Source: an uncultured cyanobacterium (GTDB lineage Bacteria > Cyanobacteriota > Cyanobacteriia > Cyanobacteriales > Microcystaceae). From it: a stretch of DNA of 46,933 nucleotides. A program made the position numbers and the translations under genes. The stretch lies in the NCBI GenBank assembly GCA_963807635.1, contig CAWEDJ010000050.1, positions 1-46,933 on the forward strand. Reading direction: 5' to 3'. Below, one piece after another: positions 229 through 46,816 of the stretch. The stretch's first letter is position 1, and each line of letters opens with the position of its first letter. Below the pieces are notes generated by a model. It searched no databases. It saw nothing but the letters and a program-made list of their open reading frames with translations, and was not told where the DNA came from.

Positions 229-3200
229 ATGCCACGCCGCACAGACTTAAAGAAAATTTTAGTATTGGGAGCTGGCCCGATTGTTATTGGGCAAGCCTGT
301 GAATTTGACTATTCGGGAACCCAAGCCTGTAAAGCCTTACGGGAAGAGGGTTATGAAGTGGTATTAGTGAACTCTAATCCCGCTTCGATCATGACCGATC
401 CAGAAACAGCCCATCGCACCTATATCGAACCGCTCCTCCCTGAAATGGTGGAAAAGGTGATCGAGAAAGAACGGCCCGATGCTTTGTTACCGACAATGGG
501 CGGACAAACGGCTCTTAATCTGGCAGTGACCTTGGCGAAATCGGGTGTCCTAGAAAAATACGGCGTTGAGTTGATCGGGGCCAAATTAGACGCGATCGAA
601 ATGGGGGAAGACCGAGAACTGTTTAAGGAAGCCATGGCCCGCATTGGGGTTCCCGTCTGTCCTTCAGGGATTGTGAGTAATATTGAAGATGCTCGCCGTG
701 TAGCCAAGGAAATCGGTTCCTATCCCTTGATTATTCGTCCCGCCTTTACTCTCGCAGGAACAGGGGGGGGGATTGCCTATAACCAGGAAGAATACGAAGA
801 AATGGCTCTCTATGGATTAGAGCAATCGCCTGTTTCCCAAATTCTCGTCGAAAAATCCCTCTTAGGCTGGAAAGAATACGAATTAGAGGTCATGCGAGAT
901 TTGGCAGATAATGTGGTAATTATCTGTTCGATTGAAAATTTTGATCCGATGGGGGTACATACAGGGGACTCGATCACCGTTGCCCCTGCCCAAACTTTGA
1001 CAGACAAGGAATATCAACGGTTACGCGATTATTCGATGGCAATTATCCGAGAAATCGGCGTAGAAACGGGCGGATCGAATATTCAATTTTCCGTGAATCC
1101 TGCCAATGGGGATGTGATTGTCATTGAGATGAATCCCCGTGTTTCCCGTTCTTCTGCTCTAGCATCTAAGGCAACGGGTTTCCCGATCGCGAAATTTGCG
1201 GCGAAATTAGCGGTAGGTTATACGCTGAACGAAATTTCCAACGATATTACCAAGAAAACCCCTGCATCCTTTGAGCCGACCATTGATTATGTGGTCACGA
1301 AAATTCCCCGTTTTGCCTTTGAAAAGTTCCCTGGCTCGGAACCGATTTTAACGACCCAAATGAAATCTGTTGGGGAAGCCATGGCCATTGGTCGCACTTT
1401 CCAAGAGTCTTTCCAAAAAGCGTTACGTTCTTTAGAAACTGGTCGTTTTGGGTTTGGTTGCGATCGCGTCGAAACCCTGCCGACCTTGCCCCAGGTGCGT
1501 TCCCAACTGAGGACACCCAATCCTGATCGGGTTTACTCGATTTATCACGCCTTCAGTCTGGGCATGACCGTCGAAGAAATCCATGAATTAACCGCGATCG
1601 ACATCTGGTTTTTGGATAAATTAGCAGATCTGGTGGAAACAGAAAAAATCCTCAAAAAAACGCCCCTCAAATCGATCACGGCGGCAAAAATGCGCTCGGT
1701 TAAACAACAGGGATTCAGCGATCGCCAAATTGCCTTTGCCACCAAATCCAGCGAAGACGAGGTGCGAGCCTACCGTAAGAGTTTAGACATTATTCCTGTG
1801 TATAAAATGGTGGATACCTGCGCGGCGGAATTTGAAGCCCTTACGCCCTATTATTATTCCACCTACGAACCCTCAGATTCAGAGGTTTTACCCTGTGATA
1901 AGCAAAAAGTGATGATTTTGGGCGGTGGGCCGAACCGTATTGGTCAGGGCATCGAATTTGACTATTGTTGTTGTCATGCCGCCTTTTCTCTCAGTGATGC
2001 GGGTTATGAAACGATCATGGTCAATTCCAACCCCGAAACCGTTTCCACCGACTATGACACCAGCGATCGCCTCTATTTTGAACCGCTAACCAAGGAAGAT
2101 GTTTTAAATATCATCGAAGCCGAGCAACCTGCGGGGATTATCGTGCAGTTTGGTGGTCAAACCCCGTTAAAACTAGCGGTTCCATTGCAAAAATACCTCA
2201 ATAGTCCTGATTGTCCCGTCCAAACTAAAATCTGGGGAACTTCACCCGATTCCATTGATGCTGCCGAAGATCGGGAGCGTTTCGAGAAAATTCTCCGTGA
2301 ATTAGACATTAAACAACCTGCTAACGGTATTGCCCGTAATTACGAAGAATCTCGCGTGGTTGCTAATCGTATTGGGTATCCTGTGGTTGTGCGTCCTTCC
2401 TACGTTTTAGGCGGTCGGGCGATGGAAATCGTCTATTCCGATGAGGAATTGGAACGTTACATGGTCTATGCGGTGCAGATCGAACCCGATCACCCCATTT
2501 TGATCGATAAATTTCTCGAAAACGCGATCGAGGTTGACGTAGATTCCCTGACTGATGCGACGGGTTTTGTCGTTATGGGGGGCATTATGGAGCATATCGA
2601 AGAAGCGGGCATCCATTCAGGAGATTCTGCCTGTTCTCTGCCCTATACGAGCTTAACAGATGAAGTTGTCACGACCATTCGCCAATGGACGGAACAGTTA
2701 GCCAAGTCTTTAAAAGTCATTGGTTTGATGAATATTCAGTATGCGGTGCAAGGCGATCAGGTTTATATCCTAGAAGCCAATCCCCGTGCCTCTCGGACAG
2801 TTCCCTTTGTTTCTAAGGCAACGGGGCGGCCTTTGGCGAAAATTGCGTCTTTAGTGATGTCGGGCAAAACTTTGACGGAACTGGGCATTACGGAAGAATT
2901 AATTCCCAACCATGTTGCGGTTAAAGAAGCGGTTTTACCCTTTGCTAAGTTTCCTGGCACAGATACCTTGCTTGGCCCTGAAATGCGTTCTACGGGTGAG
3001 GTGATGGGGATTGATAGTGATTTCGGGAAAGCCTTTGCTAAGGCTGAATTGGGAGCCAGTGTTAATCTATCAACAACTGGAACGGTGTTTGTTTCCATGA
3101 GCGATCGCACTAAAGAAGCAGTAGTCCCTGTCGTTCGGGATTTAATTGCTTTGGGCTTTAAAGTGGTTGCGACATCGGGAACCCAACAAGTCCTGAAAGA

Positions 3201-3471
3201 TAATGGAATTGAGGGAATTGAAGTTGTCCTCAAACTCCATGAAGGTCGTCCCCATGTAATTGATTGGATCAAGAATAATCAGATCCAATTTATTATTAAT
3301 ACCCCTAGCGGTGAAGAGTCCCAATTAGACGGGCGATCGATTCGTCGGGCGGCTTTGGATTATAAGTTACCGATTATCACGACCTTAGCAGGGGCGCGGG
3401 CAACGGTGGCGGCGATTAAGAGTTTGCAGGATCATCCTTTGGAGGTTAAGGCTTTACAGGATTATTTTTAG
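229..3471 (+). CDS. carB: carbamoyl-phosphate synthase large subunit
   Basis: 1080 aa with N-terminal [23 protein letters not shown], two ATP-grasp halves ([21 protein letters not shown]) and a C-terminal MGS domain. Confidence 0.99.
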
Positions 3472-6539: not shown

Positions 6540-6989
6540 ATGTTAGCATTAAAGACACTTTATGAAACCGACTTTCATCTTTGGCTCGAAGAAACAGCCC
6601 AAGCCCTTCGAGATGGCAATTTAGAACAATTAGATAGAGAAAACCTATTAGAAGAAATCGAAGCAATGGGACGTAGCGATCGCCGAGCGATTAGACGAAA
6701 CTTAGAACAATTATTAATGCACCTGCTTAAATGGCATTATCAATCCGATAAATTAACGAATAGCTGGAAATATTCAATTCGGGAATATAGAAAACGCCTT
6801 TTAGAAGATTTTGAAGAAAGTCCCAGTTTAAAGCGATATTATGAAGAAGTCTTTCCTCAGTGTTACCAAAATGCACGAGAAATGGCATCCGATGAAACAG
6901 GTTTAAAATTATCCATCTTTCCGTTATTATGTCCATTTAATCAAACGGAAATTCTAGATATTCGTAATTTACCCGATCAAACATATTGA
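6540..6989 (+). CDS. DUF29 family protein
   Basis: LYETDFHLW, LDRENLLEEIEAMGRS, LLMHLLKW.YQ, SPSLK and FPLLCPF motifs. Confidence 0.93.
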   Translation: MLALKTLYETDFHLWLEETAQALRDGNLEQLDRENLLEEIEAMGRSDRRAIRRNLEQLLMHLLKWHYQSDKLTNSWKYSIREYRKRLLEDFEESPSLKRYYEEVFPQCYQNAREMASDETGLKLSIFPLLCPFNQTEILDIRNLPDQTY

Positions 6990-10376: not shown

Positions 10377-10705
10377 AAATTTGCCATCAATTTATTTTTC
10401 GGGACAATTCCAGAAAAGACTAGACAAAATCAAGTCTAAGCGGATTTAACCTCTTTTTTACTCGAAAACGATGATCAAGAAGCAAGGAACCATTGGAAAT
10501 TTATGCCAACTATTGCTAGAGTGGTGGGGTGGGTAAGGAGTAAATTGGTTGCAAACAAGAGCCATAGACGTTTAATTAATCAAGCTTTGAAAAATAAGAT
10601 TGAAACAAAGAATCAATTTCATTGGATAATAGGGATTATCGTCTTTTAATCCCCTAAGCCGCCAATGACATCGGTTTTTATAGCAATCCTTACCCATTGT
10701 CCAGC

Positions 10706-13226
10706 ATGAAACCGTTTCAGACTGTCCATCAATCCTTGCAGGGCTGGTGGCGCGATTCAAAGGATCACCAGACAAAAGCTCCTCTCTGGTTGCGTCTTCT
10801 TCCCCCTAAGCCTTCGTTGTTCCCTAAAACCGATAAGTCTGCACCGAACGTTTTGCAGAAAGTTTGCTGTTCTCGCAAAATACGAAAAATCCATTCCCCT
10901 GTCATGTTTGGCATCACAGTGGTTTCTATGACGGGAGTGATCGGTTATCGCTTTTATAATCAACCCCAATTAGCCGTAGGTAATATTTCTCCGATTACCG
11001 TAGTGGCTCCCAAAGATGCAAAATTTGCCGATCAAAAAACGACAGAAGACAGACGAAAGGATGTTCGTGCAGGGATTATTCCCCGTTTAAAGCGAGATGA
11101 TCAATTAACTCAATCCCTGAAACAAAACCGAGGGGTGTTGTTAGATCAAATCAACCAATTAAGAAGGATTGGCTCTCCTTTTCCGTTTATTTCTACCAAT
11201 ATCTTAAGTTTAGCTGACCAACAATATCTCCGCAATTGTCCCGAAGAGCAATGGCAACTCCTCCTCAAAACGCTCCAATCTTCAACCCCTTCCAGGGATC
11301 TCTCGCCCCAACTTCAAAAAATTAGTAAACGTTTAGGATATTTCCTCCAAGAGTCTTCTCAATCCGCCTCAAAAACCGAATCGACTCAAAAATTGGATAC
11401 AGAGTTAAAATCCTTAATTCTCAAGGTAGAAAAAGCCCGCGAACAATATGCCCAGGTCATTAGTCGATTGGCGATCGCTAGAGTGGATCAGATCTCTCCT
11501 GAAACCCTAGTCACGGCTTTGCAATTAAATGACTCTACTTGGAAAGTGACTGAACAAACCATTATCCAGGTATTTGATCGAATTTTGATTCAAGGTCTGG
11601 CTCCAGGGATTTCTCCCGAACTTTTAGCAGAGACCATTCGGTTTCATTTACGCAACGTTTTACCGACAAATGCCGACAATGTTGCCCAGGAGGTACTCTT
11701 GGCCCTTTTAAAAGAGGGGCATAATTTAACCATTGATAAGGAAGAAACTAGGCGATACGCGGAACGAGCGGCCCTTGCCATTGAACCCGTAATGGTTTCC
11801 ATCAAAAAAGGAGGGCCCGATTATTAAAGCTGGTCAACCCATTGAGCAAAGTCAGTTTGTGGTACTAGATGGCTTGGGTTTGAGTCAACGGCAAACCAAC
11901 TGGTCTGGCCTCGCACTTTCGGCGGGATTAGTTTCTGCGGGGGTTTTGATTTTTTGGGGCATTAGTCAACGAGTTCACCGTCCGCTCCGTCGTCGTGATC
12001 ATATTTTGTTGTGTTTATTGAGCATTAGTACCCCCGCCATGTCTCTGCTCCATCCCCGTTATGCCGATTTACCTGCGGTGGGATTATTGGTCAGTAGTTT
12101 CTATGGCCGACTTTAGCGGTTTCCCAGGTGATCCTAGTCGGCGGGCTTTCGACTTTTGCGACGGATAATGTCAATTGGGAATATACTCTGGGGGGCTTGG
12201 CAGAGTGGGATCATGGCGGCTTTGATTGCAGGAAGATTGCGATCGCGGGATGATTTGGCTCTGTTGGGAGCGGGCGTAGGGATTTTGCAAGGTGGGGTTT
12301 ACTTGGTTAGTTATCTCATTCTCAGTACAACAGCAACTTCTGTTTGGTATGCGGTTTTACCTGGAGCCGCAATTTATGGACTTTTGGGCATGGGCTGGAG
12401 TATTGTTGCGATCGGGATTTCTCCCTATTTAGAACGATTTTTTGATGTTGTCACCCCCATCCGACTGGTGGAACTCGCAAATCCCAATTGTCCCCTCCTC
12501 AAACGATTGGCGATGGAAGCCCCTGGAACCTTTCAACATACTTTATTTGTCGCTTGTCTGGCGGAATCGGCGGCACGGGAATTGCGCTGTAATGTGGAGT
12601 TAGTCCGAACAGGAACGCTTTACCATGACATTGGAAAAATGCACGATCCCTTGGGTTTCATCGAAAATCAGATGGGCGGCCCCAATAAGCATGACCTCAT
12701 TCAAGATCCCTACGTCAGTGTGGACATTATTAAAAAACACGTTTCCGAAGGGTTAGAAATGGCCCGTCGCTACGGATTACCCCAGGTTGTGCGTGATTTT
12801 ATTCCTGAGCATCAAGGATCGCTTTTGATTTCCTATTTTTATTATCAAGCCAAGGAAGCGGCTGAAAAATCGGGACAGGAATTCGTGGATGAAGTCAGGT
12901 TTCGCTATGACGGCCCCATTCCTCAATCCAGGGAGACGGGAATTGTCATGTTAGCCGATAGTTCAGAAGCCGCCTTGCGATCGCTGAAAGATGCCACTCC
13001 TGAGACCGCAAGCGTCATGATTAACCGTATTTTCAAAGCCCGTTGGCGGGATGAACAACTCAAGGATAGTGGACTGAAATACGAGGAGTTACCGATTATT
13101 GCCGATGTTTTTGTACGAGTTTGGCAACAGTTCCATCATCAACGCATTGTTTATCCCAAGGCCGCCTTGGAATCTCCCGAACCTGTTGAGTTAGTGAATC
13201 AATCCCATAAAGTCAGCGCGGAATAA
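10706..13226 (+). CDS. 7TM-HD (HDIG) phosphohydrolase, PgpH-like putative c-di-AMP phosphodiesterase; three apparent indels (~11815, ~12107, ~12203)
   Basis: N-terminal TM and extracellular domain, multi-TM segment, then EAPGTFQH, YHDIGK, FIENQ, HQG, FRYDGPIPQSRE and MLADS.EAA. Confidence 0.88.
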
Positions 13227-35078: not shown

Positions 35079-38000
35079 ATGAAAATTCTTCACGGTACTT
35101 GGATTCCCAACGAAACAGACGAATTTGTTCAATCTGGCGGCTTTTATCTCTGGGTTGAAACGGATTCTATTGCTAAACAAACCAAAAAACTATCAGAAAA
35201 TCATCATCCTCAACAATTAATCAAAGACAAATTAGCGATTTTTTTGAAGGAAGAATTAGGGATTCCCGCGCCCAAATATGGCAGTTTTAGTCAGGAAATT
35301 TTTAGTAAATGCTTTATTCTTCCTAGTACCGAAAATGAACCCTTGCCGTCCTCAGAACTCATTCGTTATCTCGAAGTTGAACCGCTAGAAGCGACAAAAT
35401 GGAAAGCCTGGGAAATTGACTGTTATGAGGTCACGTCAATTATTAAAGTCCTCAATGACTTAAATTTCTTGTGTCGCTACACCACATCAGACATTCAACT
35501 AGGTTCAGATTTACTCTTTTGGTATCATTACACCCAATCCTTTAAACAGATTTTACTTAAAGATCAATATATTCCTGCCCTTAAATATCGAGAAATTGCT
35601 AAAAAAAAAGGTACTAAAAAAGTCACTTCCTCTTTTGAAATTTATCCTGGTTGGGAAATTATTTCTGAAACCTACGAATCGAATATTCAACAATTTATCG
35701 ATTATATGCCCCTTGCCTGTACTTCAGGTTTAGATAGCTCTACAAAAAACATTGAATTTTATGATAAAGAAACCCTTTTACGTCACTTTTCTGAGTCGTT
35801 TCTTCATAGTATTGTAACTCATACCCCGACGACAGCCGCTTTCGATAAAAAAATATTTGGCTCTAATCTTCTACTCGGTTGCATGAATTCTCAAGGTATT
35901 AATACTCCTGCAAAAGATAGTGATGCCCTAGAAGAATATAAACAATGGCAATCCTGGCAACAAAAATTGGCGATCGCCCAAAATCATTCAGGATTCCATC
36001 TCGGTTTTCAGTTACAAGAAGCTTCGGATAAAAATCCCGATGATTGGTATCTCAAATTTGTGGTTTCCCTCAAAAAGATCCTTCCTTAAAACTCGAATTA
36101 GATGATTATTGGCAACTGAATACGAAAAGTAAACAAGCTCTTAAACAACAATTTGGTCAGGATTTTGAAAAGGATTTACTACTGAATTTAGGCTACGCGG
36201 CCCGAATTTATCCCCAGGTTTGGCAAGGTTTGGAAACGGATAAACCCGTTGGTTTTTCGCTGAATTTATTGGAAGCCTTTAATTTTCTGAAAGAAAGTGC
36301 CTGGGTTTTGGAAGATGCGGGTTATAAGGTGATGATTCCTGCTTGGTGGACTCCCCAGGGCAGACAACGGGCAAAAGTTCGTCTCAAGGCTTCTGCTAAA
36401 AAATCTGCTCCCGCCTCTGTTGGGAAAGGTTATTTCCAATTAGATAAAATTATTCAATATCAGTATGAATTAGCGATCGCCGATCAAGCGATTACTCCCG
36501 AAGAATGGCAACAGTTGGTTAATGCCAAAACGCCCTTGGTGAAATTTCGAGGACAATGGATGGAATTAGACCAGGCGAAAATGCAACAAATGTTAGAGTT
36601 TTGGCAAAAAAATCAGGGAGAAACCCAGGAATTAACCCTGATGGAATTGATACAAAAAGCTTCCCAAATGGGGGAAGAAATGGACATCGAGCCTGATGAA
36701 ACTTTAGCAGAAATGATTGCTAAATTAAATGATCCTAGTCGTCTGGAAATTATGGATGATCCTGAGCAATTACAAGGAACACTCAGGGAATATCAAAAAC
36801 GAGGCGTTTCCTGGATTCAATACCTCGAAAAATTGGGGTTAAATGGTTGTCTTGCCGATGATATGGGATTAGGAAAAACGGTGCAAGTTATTGCTTCTTT
36901 AGTAAAAGAAAGAGAAACTTCAGCCGATATTTTACCCACTTTATTAATTGCCCCAACTTCAGTAGTGGGCAACTGGAAAAAAGAAATTGAAAAGTTTGCT
37001 CCCCATCTTAAAGTGATTGTTCATCATGGCAGCGATCGCATTCAAACTGAAGCTGAATTTAAGACCGCAAGTTTAAAACAGGATGTGGTGATTACATCCT
37101 ATACCCTAGCCCGAAAAGATAGCAAACTCTTAAACAGCTTAAATTGGCAAAGAGTCGTAATTGATGAAGCTCAAAATATTAAAAATCCCAAGGCTGCCCA
37201 AACTAAAGCAATTTTAAGTTTAAAATCTACCCATCGATTGGCTTTAACGGGAACGCCTGTGGAAAATCGATTATTGGATCTCTGGTCAATTTTTAATTTT
37301 CTTAATCCCAATTATCTCGGAAAAGAAGCTCAATTTCGGAAATCTTTTGAAATTCCTATCCAAAAAGAAAATAATCGAAACTCAATCGACCGTTCTCAAA
37401 AAATTGGTTCAACCGTTTATCCTGCGACGGGTCAAAACTGACAAACAAATTATTAAGGATTTACCCGACAAAATTGAACACAAACAGTATTGTAATTTGA
37501 CTAAAGAACAAGCTTCTCTTTATGAAGCGGTTGTTAAAGATGTGATCGATCAATTAGAAGATGCTGAAGGAATTCAACGTAAAGGATTAATTTTATCTAC
37601 CTTGATGAAACTCAAACAAATTTGTAATCATCCCAGGCAATTTTTGCAAGATGGAAGTGAATTTACACCAGAGCGATCGCATAAATTGGAACGATTAGGA
37701 GAAATGCTAGAAGAAGCAATTGCCGAAGGAGAAAGTTTATTGATTTTTACGCAATTTACGGAAATTGGTGAAGCAATCTAGACGTTATCTCAAACACAAT
37801 CTTCATTACAATACTCATTATTTACACGGGGGAGTTCCTCAGAAAAAACGGGAACAAATGATTACCCAGTTTCAAGATCCTGAAGGGGAACCATCGGCTT
37901 TTGTGCTATCCCTAAAAGCGGGTGGGGTGGGGATTACTTTAACGAAGGCAAATCACGTTTTCCATTTTGATCGCTGGTGGAATCCTGCGGTAGAAGACCA

Positions 38001-38217
38001 AGCGACCGATCGCGCTTTTCGGATTGGTCAGAAAAAAAATGTATTTGTCCATAAATTTGTGACCTTGGGGACACTGGAAGAACGCATTGATCAAATGATT
38101 GAAGATAAGAAAAAAATTGCTAATCTAGTAGTCGGTTCTGATGAATCTTGGTTAACTGAATTAGATAATGATAGTTTCAAAAAATTGATTGCCCTGAATC
38201 GACAGACGGTTATTTGA
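35079..38217 (+). CDS. SNF2-family helicase-like ATPase; three apparent indels (~36073, ~37378, ~37778)
   Basis: LREYQKRG, LADDMGLGKT, DEAQNIKN, LTGTPVENRL, LRRVK, SLKAGGVGITLT.A and WWNPAVEDQATDRAFRIGQ. Confidence 0.93.
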
Positions 38218-42729: not shown

Positions 42730-43179
42730 ATGATTGAACATATTTCGCTGGTACAGGCTGCACCGATTGTAATGATGATTTTAGACAAATTCTGGGACGG
42801 TGTGGGTTCTAAGTTAGGAGAGTTGGCAGTTGAGAAATTCCCAGAAAAGGTAAAGCAGTTAGGGCAATTTGTCTGGGAAAAGTGTTTGCGAGGGAAAACA
42901 GACACTAATAAGTTATTGGAGGGAGCTGCAAATGGTTCAGAAGAAGAACAAAAAAAGCTAGAGGCATACCTGTCTGAAATATTAATAAGTGATCCAAGTT
43001 TCAATCAAGAAGTTAAACAGTTGGCGACAGAGATTTATCAAGCCATTCAAGAGGTTGATGCCCATAATGTTCAGCAAGTTTTTGGTGGTCAAGGCTTACA
43101 GGTTAATGATCCAAAAGCACCTGTGATTCAAGCAGGCGAAAACGCTAAGTTTTATTTTGGGGGACAATCTCCTGACTGA
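42730..43179 (+). CDS. small helical protein with Q/N/G-rich C-terminal tail (Bell/HeLo-like effector candidate), in frame with the downstream NLR
   Basis: 149 aa: hydrophobic N-terminal helix, charged amphipathic helices, tail HNVQQVFGGQGLQVNDPKAPVIQAGENAKFYFGG. Confidence 0.7.
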   Translation: MIEHISLVQAAPIVMMILDKFWDGVGSKLGELAVEKFPEKVKQLGQFVWEKCLRGKTDTNKLLEGAANGSEEEQKKLEAYLSEILISDPSFNQEVKQLATEIYQAIQEVDAHNVQQVFGGQGLQVNDPKAPVIQAGENAKFYFGGQSPD

Positions 43180-45960
43180 CTGAAGCCGCCTGTCGTAGAT
43201 CAGGTTAAACAAAACTATTATGGTTTACCCCGAAGTGGAGTAATCCGTTTTGTTGGAAAACTTGAGGTTTTAGATGAATTAGATCAACAGTTAACAACTT
43301 CTGAACGCGTTGCTATTTCAACCTTAACGGGAATGGGAGGTATTGGTAAAACAGAACTCGCACTTCAATACGCGCTTAAGGATATTAAAAAAACGCCAGA
43401 GGATAGACGATATCAAGGGGGTATTTGCTGGTTAAACGCCCAAGGGAATATTGGAACTCAACTTTTAATGTTTATTAAAGAGTGTCTTCAGATCAACATC
43501 ACCGATGAGGGAACTTTAGAAGAGCGGATTGCTATTGCTTGGCAAAGATGGCCAAGAAAAGAATCATTGATTATTTTTGATGATGTCCAAGAACTAACAA
43601 AAATTGAACCTTTTTTGCCACCAAATCATGAAAATCACATTAAAGTGATTATTACAACAAGAAAACAGAAAATTGCTAAGAATTTTTCTCCTTTACCTGT
43701 TGAATTATTAAGTTTAGTTGATTCTCTAGAATTATTAATTTCCTTTGTTGGTAAAAATGAAGTTAATCAGGATGAAATTACGGCGAAAGCATTATGTGAA
43801 TGGTTAGGCCGTTTGCCATTGGGAATTGAATTAGTTGGAAGATATATCAGGGAAACCGAAGAAGAGTTAATCACTGTATTTGATAATTTAAAAGCTTTGA
43901 AATTAGCTGATGAAAGTTTAGATTATCCGACTGATGAAGTTATGACTGCTAAACGAGGAGTAGCGGCTGCTTTTGAATTGAGTTGGAAACAATTAAGTGA
44001 ATCGGCTCAAATTTTAGCAATGTCTTTAAGTTTATTTGCCATTGCTCAAATTCCTTCTGAACTATTGTTGTCAGATGAGAAAAATTTGAACCAAATTAAG
44101 AAAGATTTACGAGATTTAAAAAATTTGAGCTTAATTAAAGATATTGGTAATAAAAACTACGAACTTCATCCCTTAATTTGGCAATATTTTAGAGCAGAAT
44201 TAGATCAGTATAAATTATCAGAAGATTTAAAACGTCAGCATTGCAAATTAATTGCTTCTATTACTCGAAAAATACCTGCCAATCCTACTAAAATAGACAT
44301 TAAAGATTTAAGTTCTCTCGCTCCTCACTTGGAATTAATAGTTGAAGAACTTAATATATGGTTACAGGATAATGATTTGATTTTTCCTTATGTTGTGTTA
44401 GGAAGATTTTACGAATCACAAGGTTTTTATGAGCGTGCAGAACCTTATTTTGAAAATTGTCTTGAAATTTCTAAAAATCGCTTTGGTGAAAAATCACATT
44501 ATGTACTATTAAGTTTTAATAATCTTGCAACTTTATATCTCTCTCAAGGAAAGTACAAAGAAGCTGAAGTTATTTTTACAAGAGACTTAGCTTTAAAAAA
44601 TATTGAGGGAATGGAAGAAAACTTTATAAGTATAGTTTTTAACAATATTTCCCGACTATATACAAAACAAGGAAGATATGAAGAGGCAAAAGTTTTTTTA
44701 ATTAAGGCTTTAGAACTTACAAAAGAAAACTTAGGAGAAGAGACTCCTAATCGTGTTATCCGATTAAACAATCTTGCTGAAATTTATCGCTGTCAGGGTA
44801 AATATACGGAAGCTTTTTCTATTGCATCCAAAGCACTTACTTTATGTAAAAATTTATTAAATAATAAACATCCTTTTATTCCTGTTATCTTGAATAATCT
44901 TGCCAATACTTATCTCAGTCAAGGCAAATATAAAGAAGCAGAAGATTATTATTTGCAATCTTGTGAATTAGATAAAGAATTGTATGGCGAAGATAGTCTT
45001 GATATAACTATTGATTTCAATAATCTTGCCAATTTATATAAAATTCAGAAAAAATATGAAGAAGCAGAAAAATATTATCTTCAATCGCTGAACACATCTA
45101 GGAAGATTTTAGGAGAAGAACATCCTGATATAGCAGTCACTCTAAATAATTTAGGTTTACTGTATAAAAATCAAGGAAAATATGAAGAAGCAGAAAAATA
45201 TTATCTTCAATCGCTGAACACATCTAAGATAATTTATGGTGAAGAGCATCCTGACATAGCAATTGGTTTTGAGAATCTTGCTTCGCTTTATGAGACTCAG
45301 GGCAAAATCGGGGAAGCTAAAACCCTTTTTCTTAAAGCGTTAGAAATGAAAAAGAAACTTCTAGGAATCAAGCATCCTAGTGTAGCAACTAGCCTGAGTA
45401 ATCTCGCTGTTTTACATGACAATCAAAGAAAATATGACACGGCAGAGTTATATTACCATCAGGCATTAGAGATAATGCAAAATCTTTTTAATTTAGGTCA
45501 TCCTGACATAGCAAGAATCTTAGATAATTTAGCATTATTATATGGTAAACAAGGGCAATATACAAAAGCGGAGCCACTTCATCGCCAAGCATTAGAAATG
45601 AGCAAAAAGTTGCTTGGTGATAACTCTCCTGATGTAGCACTTAGCTTAAATAATTTTGCAACTTTATACCATTTTCAAAAAAAATATTCCCTTGCAATTC
45701 CTTATTATGAGAAAGCAATTGGGATTTTTCGACAAGTGTTAGCAACCGACCACCATGACATCCAAAAGGTTATTAATAATTATTTAACAATGCTCCAAGA
45801 AGCTCCAGAGAAAGAAATTTTACCGTTGGTTTCTCCAGAATGGAAAGTAAAACTTTCAAATATAAAAGCATCTTTTAAAACAAATAAAGCTCTTCCAAAA
45901 AAACGTAAATTAAAAACCAAAAAGAAAATTACAAAGAGAAGTAAAGGATTTGGAACTTAA
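43180..45960 (+). CDS. NLR-like STAND protein (NB-ARC ATPase plus 42-aa TPR repeats); the reading frame is open from 43180, not 43333
   Basis: The upstream in-frame segment encodes LPRSG..FVG...L..L and ISTLTG-MGGIGKT (Walker A). Walker B LIIFDDV, IITTR, LGRLPLGIELVG, LHPL and about 11 TPRs (HP..A..LNNL..LY..QGKY.EA) follow. Confidence 0.92.
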   Translation: MKPPVVDQVKQNYYGLPRSGVIRFVGKLEVLDELDQQLTTSERVAISTLTGMGGIGKTELALQYALKDIKKTPEDRRYQGGICWLNAQGNIGTQLLMFIKECLQINITDEGTLEERIAIAWQRWPRKESLIIFDDVQELTKIEPFLPPNHENHIKVIITTRKQKIAKNFSPLPVELLSLVDSLELLISFVGKNEVNQDEITAKALCEWLGRLPLGIELVGRYIRETEEELITVFDNLKALKLADESLDYPTDEVMTAKRGVAAAFELSWKQLSESAQILAMSLSLFAIAQIPSELLLSDEKNLNQIKKDLRDLKNLSLIKDIGNKNYELHPLIWQYFRAELDQYKLSEDLKRQHCKLIASITRKIPANPTKIDIKDLSSLAPHLELIVEELNIWLQDNDLIFPYVVLGRFYESQGFYERAEPYFENCLEISKNRFGEKSHYVLLSFNNLATLYLSQGKYKEAEVIFTRDLALKNIEGMEENFISIVFNNISRLYTKQGRYEEAKVFLIKALELTKENLGEETPNRVIRLNNLAEIYRCQGKYTEAFSIASKALTLCKNLLNNKHPFIPVILNNLANTYLSQGKYKEAEDYYLQSCELDKELYGEDSLDITIDFNNLANLYKIQKKYEEAEKYYLQSLNTSRKILGEEHPDIAVTLNNLGLLYKNQGKYEEAEKYYLQSLNTSKIIYGEEHPDIAIGFENLASLYETQGKIGEAKTLFLKALEMKKKLLGIKHPSVATSLSNLAVLHDNQRKYDTAELYYHQALEIMQNLFNLGHPDIARILDNLALLYGKQGQYTKAEPLHRQALEMSKKLLGDNSPDVALSLNNFATLYHFQKKYSLAIPYYEKAIGIFRQVLATDHHDIQKVINNYLTMLQEAPEKEILPLVSPEWKVKLSNIKASFKTNKALPKKRKLKTKKKITKRSKGFGT

Positions 45961-46234: not shown

Positions 46235-46567
46235 ATGAAACTTACTAACGGTGATCAAGCCCTTTTAGGAGACAAACTTGAACGCTATTGCCTTAATCCT
46301 GAACATTCAAAAGGAAAACATAAAGCCCGTCTTTTTGAAAAACGATTAGGAATCACCCTAACCAACAAAGATATTCTAGAAAATGCCCTAAAAAAAGCCG
46401 CAATAGAAGGAGAAGCTCAATTTTATAAAGTCGATCAATATGGCACTCATTTTGATCTCGTATTTACACTGCAAACCGAATGTGGAAAATCTCAGATTTT
46501 AAGCTGTTGGATTATCAGAAATACCGAAAAATTTCCCCGTCTTACCAATACTTACCCAGTTGATTAA
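46235..46567 (+). CDS. DUF6883-like protein (predicted toxin/nuclease)
   Basis: KLERYCLNPEHSKGKHKARLF..LG, YGT.F, SCWI and PRLTN.YP pattern. Confidence 0.75.
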   Translation: MKLTNGDQALLGDKLERYCLNPEHSKGKHKARLFEKRLGITLTNKDILENALKKAAIEGEAQFYKVDQYGTHFDLVFTLQTECGKSQILSCWIIRNTEKFPRLTNTYPVD

Positions 46568-46573
46568 CTAACT

Positions 46574-46816
46574 ATGAATACTATTAAAGAATACGATTTA
46601 GTTGCCCTAACCGAAGATGTAATGGCCACCCATAAAACAACTCATCAGCCAATTTTATTGCGTCGTGGACAAATGGGAACCGTTTTAATGTCCTTCGATC
46701 ACCAAGCCTTTTTGATTGATTTTACCGATCAACAAGGTAACACTTTTGCAATGGAAACCATTGAATCTGTTAAACTTTTACGCCTAATTACTGAACCTGA
46801 ATTAGTTTGTGCCTAA
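46574..46816 (+). CDS. DUF4926 family protein
   Basis: EYDLVALTED...LRRGQMGTV...F.D..G.T.AM; begins 6 bp after the DUF6883-like gene. Confidence 0.8.
   Translation: MNTIKEYDLVALTEDVMATHKTTHQPILLRRGQMGTVLMSFDHQAFLIDFTDQQGNTFAMETIESVKLLRLITEPELVCA

Follow-up and report, generated by a model that had tools for sequence, protein, structure and literature searches.

How a receptor protein can be made from a reading frame that offers no start codon ahead of its nucleotide-binding motif is the question raised by a locus of an uncultured cyanobacterium of the Microcystaceae (NCBI GenBank assembly GCA_963807635.1). The stretch of DNA analysed, hereafter the window, comprises positions 1 to 46,933 (46,933 nt) of contig CAWEDJ010000050.1; the locus, on its forward strand, consists of a small open reading frame (ORF) closed by UGA and, directly behind it and in the same frame, of the NB-ARC and tetratricopeptide repeat (TPR) domains of a NOD-like receptor (NLR). 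We consider it probable, at roughly three chances in four, that the locus is a one-frame cell-death system, composed of a Bell-like effector domain, an amyloid motif and an NLR, which is expressed by programmed UGA read-through. This reading draws on a stop codon conserved in identity, position and context, a covarying hairpin 8 nt downstream of it, purifying selection on the codons past the stop, and the scarcity of start codons among them.

Reading frame of the locus

Translation bears out the coordinates of the initial annotation, i.e. an ORF of 149 amino acids (aa) that stops at TGA 43177-43179 and a frame that continues without stops to 45960 (Table 1). Past the TGA, the frame is open until the stop codon at 45958-45960, giving a total of 149 + 1 + 926 = 1076 positions. 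The 51 codons described as leading into the Walker A motif do so, and there is indeed no in-frame ATG, GTG or TTG between the stop and Walker A; the first such codon after the stop (codon 52, ATG 43333) is situated inside the motif.

Among 1421 long open frames of the window's genome, TAA closes 58% and TGA 287 (20%); TGA is followed by C in 53 of the 1421 frames, and by CTA or CTG in two. What raises the observation above chance is its conservation across genomes.

A search of public reads found no run containing half of the words sampled from the window. Contigs of relatives span the stop (X3, 43176-43516; X4, 43167-43700), one of the contigs covering it beginning at the stop itself, and none of the differences listed falls at the junction; a single contig from an RNA library (metatranscriptome), also from a relative, covers 42761-42979 only.

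Conservation of the stop codon

For a first search, a 300-residue query spanning the junction, with X at the stop, was compared with 41 related genomes, and each junction-spanning match carries one TGA. Nine of the loci were read by script: in these, the upstream ORF closes in an in-frame TGA 48-55 codons before the P-loop, and the codon after the stop is CTG, CTA, GTG or ATA, followed by a conserved peptide. A second scan (one genome per species; 79 loci) yielded seven loci in which an in-frame stop lies within 61 codons upstream of the P-loop and directly adjoins an open frame of 100 codons or more; the stop is TGA in all seven, one of which is located on a finished plasmid, pREB4 of Acaryochloris marina MBIC11017.

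For a census, 401 genomes sampled throughout the phylum were searched with a profile built across the junction (A4), and 124 of them have a match at E<=1e-10. Counts refer to the 54 full-span matches (position <=30 to position >=230) among the matches listed, with 384 further matches beside those listed. Fifty-one of the 54 (in 34 genomes) contain one TGA, two contain one TAG, one contains two TAA, and no match is open; genomes G221, G199, G176 and G013 (locus L025) each gave a partial match that has one TGA. The matches with two TAA (L139) and with one of the TAG (L142) are conventional pairs, in which the motif occurs twice and the NLR has its own ATG three codons past the stop, in frame by chance. 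The other TAG match (L143) is an intact junction-type locus with TAG-CTA and the hairpin. Ordinary stops are used where the NLR brings an ATG and a motif copy of its own (L139, TAA-TAA; L142, TAG), which in these sequences is a clean dichotomy.

From 43 candidate loci, 38 distinct junctions were retained after removal of L122 (same place as L024), L113 (same as L037) and L139-L141 (not junction-type); L138, where the P-loop pattern did not match, was left out. In all 38 the stop is a TGA at the same place, with 48-63 codons separating it from the P-loop, and so it is in an additional copy on contig C105 of the window's genome; TAA occurs in none of the 38, although it is one transition away from TGA. 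The downstream frames of the junction loci remain open over 600-1200 codons.

Stop identity and context are thus kept across divergent homologues. The initial annotation had proposed conservation of the TGA among cyanobacterial homologues as a check on read-through, and this conservation is observed (one TGA in 51 of the 54 listed matches; C at position +4 in 34 of the 38 junctions). The contrary patterns that it had considered were not encountered: a sense codon at the stop is found in none of the 54 listed full-span matches, and random frames with a proper NLR start do not describe a set in which 51 of 54 keep one in-frame TGA. Its alternative of a strain-specific nonsense mutation is contradicted by the 38 distinct junctions, which come from many genera and in which the same stop recurs at an unchanged position.

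Several related loci deviate from this arrangement. Locus L058 also has TAG before CTA/CTG and a hairpin, and its upstream frame is broken. At L025 (3906-4382, reverse strand), the upstream ORF, of 159 aa, is non-Bell-like; it matches nothing in Pfam and has no obvious amyloid tail. It, too, is closed by an in-frame TGA, with ATA behind it, and the same linker and NB-ARC domain follow. Odd starts were noted in the 79-locus scan at L038, L057, L059, L051 and L060. The NB-ARC loci L051 and L060 share a conserved '...MERSR-TAG-C...' about 81-85 codons upstream of the P-loop and lack a canonical start in that vicinity; their stop may represent a different in-frame stop arrangement.

RNA cassette downstream of the stop

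The consensus past the stop is CTR-NAG-YCG-YCT-G in the 38 distinct junctions. Directly behind the stop, 21 of them have CTA, 13 have CTG, and GTG, ATA, AAG and TTA are present in one each. Position +8 is G in 35 of the 38, and position +11 is G in 37 while the first base of that codon varies (Ser/Pro); third positions do not change even where the encoded residue does.

A hairpin can indeed form at 43188-43205, as had been claimed (5 bp, 8-nt loop, starting 8 nt past the stop). Described initially as weak, it is so in the window alone (-6.2 kcal/mol), yet it is conserved and covarying across the junctions. In the alignment of the 38 junctions, the two arms are paired in 96.8% of cells, compared with 9.8-42.6% when the partner is slid; two of the pairs covary (CG/UA/UG/AU/GC and UA/CG/UG/GC), and none of 500 shuffles attains the observed score or the observed percentage paired. 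The same 5-bp stem is predicted by RNAalifold, unprompted.

Selection and start codons past the stop

Selection was examined in 67 of 703 possible pairs, with 60-97% identity over the first 48 post-stop residues. The proportion of synonymous differences (pS) and the ratio of nonsynonymous to synonymous proportions (pN/pS) are 0.15 and 0.98 for codons 1-9 after the stop, 0.27 and 0.44 for codons 10-22, and 0.44 and 0.38 for codons 23-48. As pN/pS is about 0.4 past the stop, this stretch is kept as protein (purifying selection); and as pS is 0.15 over codons 1-9 compared with 0.27-0.44 further on, the synonymous sites over the hairpin are constrained too.

In 34 of the 38 junctions there is no ATG, GTG or TTG in the first 20 post-stop codons, and in the window and five other loci there is none between the stop and the P-loop. 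A protein-coding signature is thus present directly past the stop where no start is available. For A. marina pREB4, RefSeq closes the Bell ORF at the TGA and places the start of the receptor 16 codons further on, at an ATT of the same frame.

Small ORF: Bell-like domain and motif tail

According to Dyrka et al. (bioRxiv 10.1101/2020.01.06.895854), Bell domains are about 120-140 aa long, begin with a hydrophobic helix that has a negative charge at position 2 or 3, and were modelled with five helices. The window's ORF (149 aa) starts MIEHISLVQAAPIVMMIL and has a hydrophobic N-terminal helix with an acidic residue at position 3 (MIE...), in agreement with the negative charge at position 2 or 3. 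Homologous small ORFs are present at 37 other loci; 35 of the 37 aligned begin M[ED]P or similar (M-E/D-P-hydrophobic helix), and all end in varied short G/N/Q-rich tails. With a profile of the Bell ORFs, 1373 family representatives are detected (E<=0.001); among the best 150, 142 do not exceed 180 aa. Junction profile A4 also aligns across the Bell ORFs of the conventional motif-sharing pairs L139 and L142.

The AlphaFold2 model (mean predicted local distance difference test score, pLDDT, 72.2; predicted template modelling score 0.59) contains six helices (residues 7-21, 26-36, 38-53, 59-67, 71-87 and 89-113) in a block with pLDDT 73-89, followed by a disordered segment (residues 114-149, pLDDT about 40). 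No significant match to the small ORF was obtained in Pfam, NCBIfam or PDB sequence searches, and a Bell model is not present in Pfam or NCBIfam as searched. The best match of the model in a Foldseek search against PDB has E 1.2, and VIA-align against 48,161 chains gave a best Z of 4.7, to generic helical bundles; as far as the model allows, these searches neither support nor oppose kinship with Bab, HeLo, MLKL or CC domains. The small ORF is taken as a candidate effector on the basis of its resemblance to Bell domains.

Rich in G, N and Q, and with hydrophobic residues in alternation, the C-terminal tail resembles a bacterial amyloid signalling (BASS) motif, its amyloid behaviour being putative. 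It can be aligned to motifs at the N-termini of conventional NLRs beginning at their own Met (P0010, P0011, P0012, P0016 and P0031), and these run from the motif into the linker and then into NB-ARC. The shared interaction segment of the initial annotation is therefore real, and the receptor-side motif of the window exists only upstream of the stop. The layout that marks a BASS pair, a motif at the effector C-terminus and another at the N-terminus of the adjacent NLR, was not found here, the NLR part having neither a motif copy nor a start; the locus would act as such a pair only if read-through provides the receptor-side copy.

The Bell domain and/or the motif were also observed in fusion with TIR, HEAT-repeat, transmembrane and other modules (P0118, P0167, P0168, P0126/P0127, P0209). 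P0118 (1701 aa) closes with a motif-like tail '...NVSGGTVNISPPTQQPD', as in the ORFs preceding the stop.

Receptor part

Downstream of the stop, an NB-ARC domain with Walker A is followed by a TPR repeat sensor region, which is the layout of an NLR-like STAND NTPase. Further TPR matches in Pfam comprise TPR_19 from residue 414 and DUF2225/TPR up to residue 867 (post-stop numbering). The receptor part matches NCBIfam NF040586 (FxSxx-COOH system TPR protein) with 369.3 bits (cut-off 300), residues 23-607 aligning on profile positions 7-595 of 830, and annotation pipelines would name such receptors accordingly. Partner genes of an FxSxx-COOH system were not recognised in the Pfam annotation of the window's other ORFs, no search aimed at them having been made.

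Sense-codon fusions and spread of the cassette

Three long Bell-containing proteins were found by a word-indexed search. Across the profile and word-indexed searches, P0125 and P0204 are the sole sense-codon fusions to NB-ARC, and both have W exactly at the position of the stop; TGG (Trp) is one transition away from TGA. No fusion covering the Bell part is among the best 120 of 596 matches to the junction query, the earliest true matches beginning at the motif. Judged from these two sequences, the fused state with Trp at the stop position appears viable. For E. coli, one study gives a read-through order of TGA > TAG > TAA, with mostly Trp at TGA by mass spectrometry (PMC11126739).

A covariance model of the cassette identified four sites in the window's genome (G000). 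Besides that of the window, these are C105:62907-62966, with an intact receptor; C69:12481-12540, where the receptor frame is closed after 302 codons; and C42:31183-31242, a remnant with CCG after the stop and 97 open codons. In five other carrier genomes the model gave 11 matches, namely eight known NB-ARC junctions and three NACHT loci (L160, L162 and L163), in which TGA-CTR and the hairpin connect a Bell-like ORF with a receptor of the NACHT type (PF05729, E about 1e-16). By this comparison, the stop-plus-hairpin cassette appears portable between NB-ARC and NACHT receptors.

The metagenome contigs of relatives break or diverge at 43136-43207, with loose ends at 43136 (X4) and before 43207 (X1), which hints that the boundary of motif and cassette is a point of strain-level module exchange.

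Proposed mechanism and points against it

Under programmed read-through, most ribosomes would terminate at the UGA and release an effector of roughly 16 kDa that carries the motif, and a minority would decode the UGA, most likely as Trp via near-cognate tRNA-Trp, aided by a poor release-factor context and by the hairpin at the mRNA entry channel. The read-through product would be a Bell-motif-NB-ARC-TPR protein of 1076 residues. Once the TPR sensor is triggered, the NTPase would oligomerise and bring the internal motifs together; the gathered motifs would nucleate an amyloid fold that templates the free effector pool, and the membrane-targeting helical domain of the templated effector would become active. 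The ratio of receptor to effector would be set by the efficiency of read-through, and because a single motif copy serves both partners, their specificity could not drift apart. The initial annotation had suggested such a model, an abundant effector with a rare effector-NLR fusion, and the comparison strongly supports it (conserved TGA, hairpin, selection), the model being arrived at by inference.

As an extension, the cassette might itself be an input to the immune decision. Read-through would depend on the activity of release factor 2 (RF2), the supply of tRNA-Trp, temperature and the state of the ribosome; termination perturbed by phage takeover or stress would raise read-through and with it the dose of the receptor-seed fusion, lowering the threshold for amyloid-triggered cell death. 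What is sensed would be the fidelity of translation as such, and the RNA element would be a portable one common to NB-ARC and NACHT receptors. We regard this extension as rather doubtful.

A number of points weigh against programmed read-through. The hairpin of the window, taken alone, is ordinary (-6.2 kcal/mol, z = -0.76; 41 of 200 shuffles fold as well or better), and a 5-bp stem is small for a read-through stimulator; to our knowledge, hairpin-stimulated, SelB-independent read-through is not known in bacteria. The stem was derived from the same related sequences and lies in a coding region, where constraints on codons could give an appearance of pairing. As the junctions are homologous, the 51 or 38 cases do not count as independent events. 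The junction-type locus L143 uses TAG-CTA, a stop that tRNA-Trp would not read. Membership of the small ORF in the Bell family is confirmed by no family model or fold match, and the fusion product is itself deduced from comparison of sequences. The public contigs, with 38 differences further to those listed, are not a clean independent confirmation of the bases at the junction. ARAGORN identified 41 tRNAs in the window's assembly, which is 93.7% complete; tRNA-Trp and tRNA-Cys were not found.

Alternative explanations

The best-surviving alternative is that of two separate proteins: ribosomes would terminate at the UGA, and the receptor would arise by re-initiation or non-canonical initiation near the next codon (CUG or CUA, or ATT as in RefSeq), the hairpin holding or positioning the ribosome and a motif-less receptor signalling to the effector in some other way. 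Tight coupling is indeed typical of conventional Bell/NLR pairs, 57% of which are within 10 bp and 42% overlapping according to Dyrka et al. (bioRxiv 10.1101/2020.01.06.895854), and the near-cognate starts CUG, GUG and AUA are next after the stop in 13, 1 and 1 of the 38 junctions, respectively. Yet the stop is followed most often by CTA (21 of 38), which differs from AUG at two positions and is not a plausible start; this also speaks against initiation at CTG 43180 as considered in the initial annotation. One locus has AAG, and although one change would give ATG, GTG or TTG, GTG is present in just one of the 38. Coupling would work with any stop, so the exclusive use of TGA is left unexplained, and a hairpin so close behind the stop (8 nt) would be an obstacle to initiation, not an aid. 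The receptor would, moreover, be devoid of the motif that conventional NLRs carry, and both sense variants are in-frame Trp fusions. We therefore hold two separate proteins to be unlikely.

Decay, i.e. a nonsense mutation or sequencing error in a pseudogene whose frame was kept by accident, is very improbable. Other broken genes are present in the assembly (an SNF2 helicase in four ORFs, a split 7TMR-HD gene), and two of the four cassette copies in the window's genome are degraded downstream (C69 and C42, with 302 and 97 open codons); against this stand the same stop in 38 distinct junctions of many genera, including a finished plasmid of an isolate, the long open downstream frames, and purifying selection past the stop.

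In bacterial selenoprotein genes, UGA is closely followed by a conserved stem-loop with G in the loop, the selenocysteine insertion sequence (SECIS) element. The locus shares with these the in-frame UGA and a nearby downstream hairpin, but selenocysteine or other dedicated recoding is scarcely credible, and a selenoprotein gene was rejected as far as these searches reach. In the window's genome, ARAGORN detected neither tRNA-Sec nor a UCA anticodon, and SelB (TIGR00475) scored 92 bits where its cut-off is 242; in all of five near-complete carrier genomes, SelB and tRNA-Sec (RF01852) likewise remained below cut-off. The position has Trp, not Cys, in the sense variants and lies in a linker with no plausible redox role.

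Comparison with known systems

The fungal and bacterial 'all-in-one' NLRs (effector-NOD-repeat) have the same architecture as the predicted read-through product, and P0125 and P0204 are natural sense-codon versions of it; all-in-one NLRs give no free effector pool, whereas termination at this locus would yield mostly free effector. Programmed read-through is exemplified by the A1 protein of phage Qbeta and by retroviral gag-pol. Compared with viral and animal read-through as described in the literature (bioRxiv 10.64898/2026.07.14.738498; PMC13517186; PMC4132726), with UGA-CUAG and stem-loops about 8 nt downstream, the cassette is similar in its UGA-CUA/CUG context, 8-nt spacer and structure, and in the two products at a fixed ratio from one frame that are predicted here; it differs in belonging to a bacterial family of chromosomal and plasmid genes, in its very small hairpin, and in involving RF2 and not eRF1.

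Closest in gene content are the Bell/BASS/NLR pairs of filamentous bacteria as described by Dyrka et al. (bioRxiv 10.1101/2020.01.06.895854), in which a small helical-bundle protein with a C-terminal motif is encoded just upstream of a collinear NB-ARC/TPR or NACHT receptor. The taxa match (cyanobacteria), and conventional pairs with homologous Bell domains are present in related genomes (L139, L142); unlike in these pairs, the window's receptor has no motif copy or start, and the two parts share a frame across the UGA, together with a conserved RNA cassette. The text of Dyrka et al. contains no occurrence of readthrough, read-through, stop codon, pseudogene or frameshift, and their screen required a motif at the N-terminus of an annotated NLR and would therefore miss such loci. 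In the E. coli Bab/Agp abortive infection system (Ibarlosa et al., bioRxiv 10.1101/2024.11.07.622273), a cell-death effector with an amyloid motif is likewise activated by a motif-sharing partner, which gives an antiphage role for motif-sharing effector/partner systems; compared by description, Bab/Agp differs in consisting of two separate genes and proteins, with a partner other than NB-ARC/TPR.

A literature search, with subscription-only papers and supplements outside its scope, found no description of read-through in Bell/NLR or cyanobacterial STAND genes and no read-through case in a bacterial immune system. If the proposed read-through is true, the locus represents widespread, conserved programmed stop-codon read-through in bacterial cellular genes, for which the cis-element is defined (UGA-CUR, 8-nt spacer, covarying hairpin) and can be transferred to reporters; within the literature searched, it would be the first example found among bacterial systems of immunity or cell death. 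It would also answer, for amyloid signalling, how receptor and effector retain an identical prion-like motif, and how the seed is kept scarce while its substrate is plentiful. Such receptors would be mis-annotated at present, with truncated or non-canonical starts (ATT in RefSeq; ATG within Walker A by ORF callers), and because surveys seek an N-terminal motif on the annotated NLR, the architecture would be missed.

Features of the locus and neighbouring genes

Table 1. Coordinates of the features of the locus in the window
Feature	Position	Strand	Basis or remark
Small ORF, 149 aa	42730-43179 including stop (coding 42730..43176)	+	Ends GAC TGA CTG
Bell-like helical domain, residues 1-113	42730..43068	+	AlphaFold2 model, 37-sequence alignment
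C-terminal tail, residues 114-149, with BASS-like motif, ...QQVFGGQGLQVNDPKAPVIQAGENAKFYFGGQSPD	43069..43176	+	Disordered in model; aligns with NLR N-terminal motifs
In-frame UGA, proposed read-through site	43177..43179	+	Translation and comparison of homologous junctions
8-nt spacer CUG AAG CC	43180..43187	+	Family consensus CUR NAG YC; +4 = C in 34/38
Linker, 50 codons, stop to Walker A	43180..43329	+	Without ATG/GTG/TTG
Conserved hairpin, arms 43188-43192 and 43201-43205, 8-nt loop	43188..43205	+	Minimum free energy structure, covariation, RNAalifold
NB-ARC NTPase domain	43270..43947	+	Pfam PF00931, E 2.9e-19, post-stop residues 31-256
Walker A GMGGIGKT	43330-43353	+	Within NB-ARC
TPR repeat sensor region	44419..45789	+	Pfam TPR_10 E 3.6e-109 (11 stretches), TPR_12 E 2.2e-104
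C-terminal tail with Lys/Arg-rich stretch at end, then stop 45958-45960	45790..45960	+	Translation

Two ORFs of the window, one of 1080 aa (229-3471) and a second one of 149 aa (6540-6989), were considered, on account of their lengths, as paralogues of the locus and rejected; they are CarB-like and DUF29, respectively, and unrelated. An SNF2-family helicase (DUF3670, SNF2-rel_dom, Helicase_C; 35079-38217, forward strand) extends over four overlapping ORFs, which suggests frameshifts, either real or from assembly. A gene for a 7TM-receptor/HD-hydrolase (7TMR-HD) is apparently split (10697-11827 and 12156-13226, forward strand), with a gap between the two parts. Directly 3' of the receptor, two small ORFs with DUF6883 and DUF4926 (46235-46816, forward strand) resemble a two-gene module.

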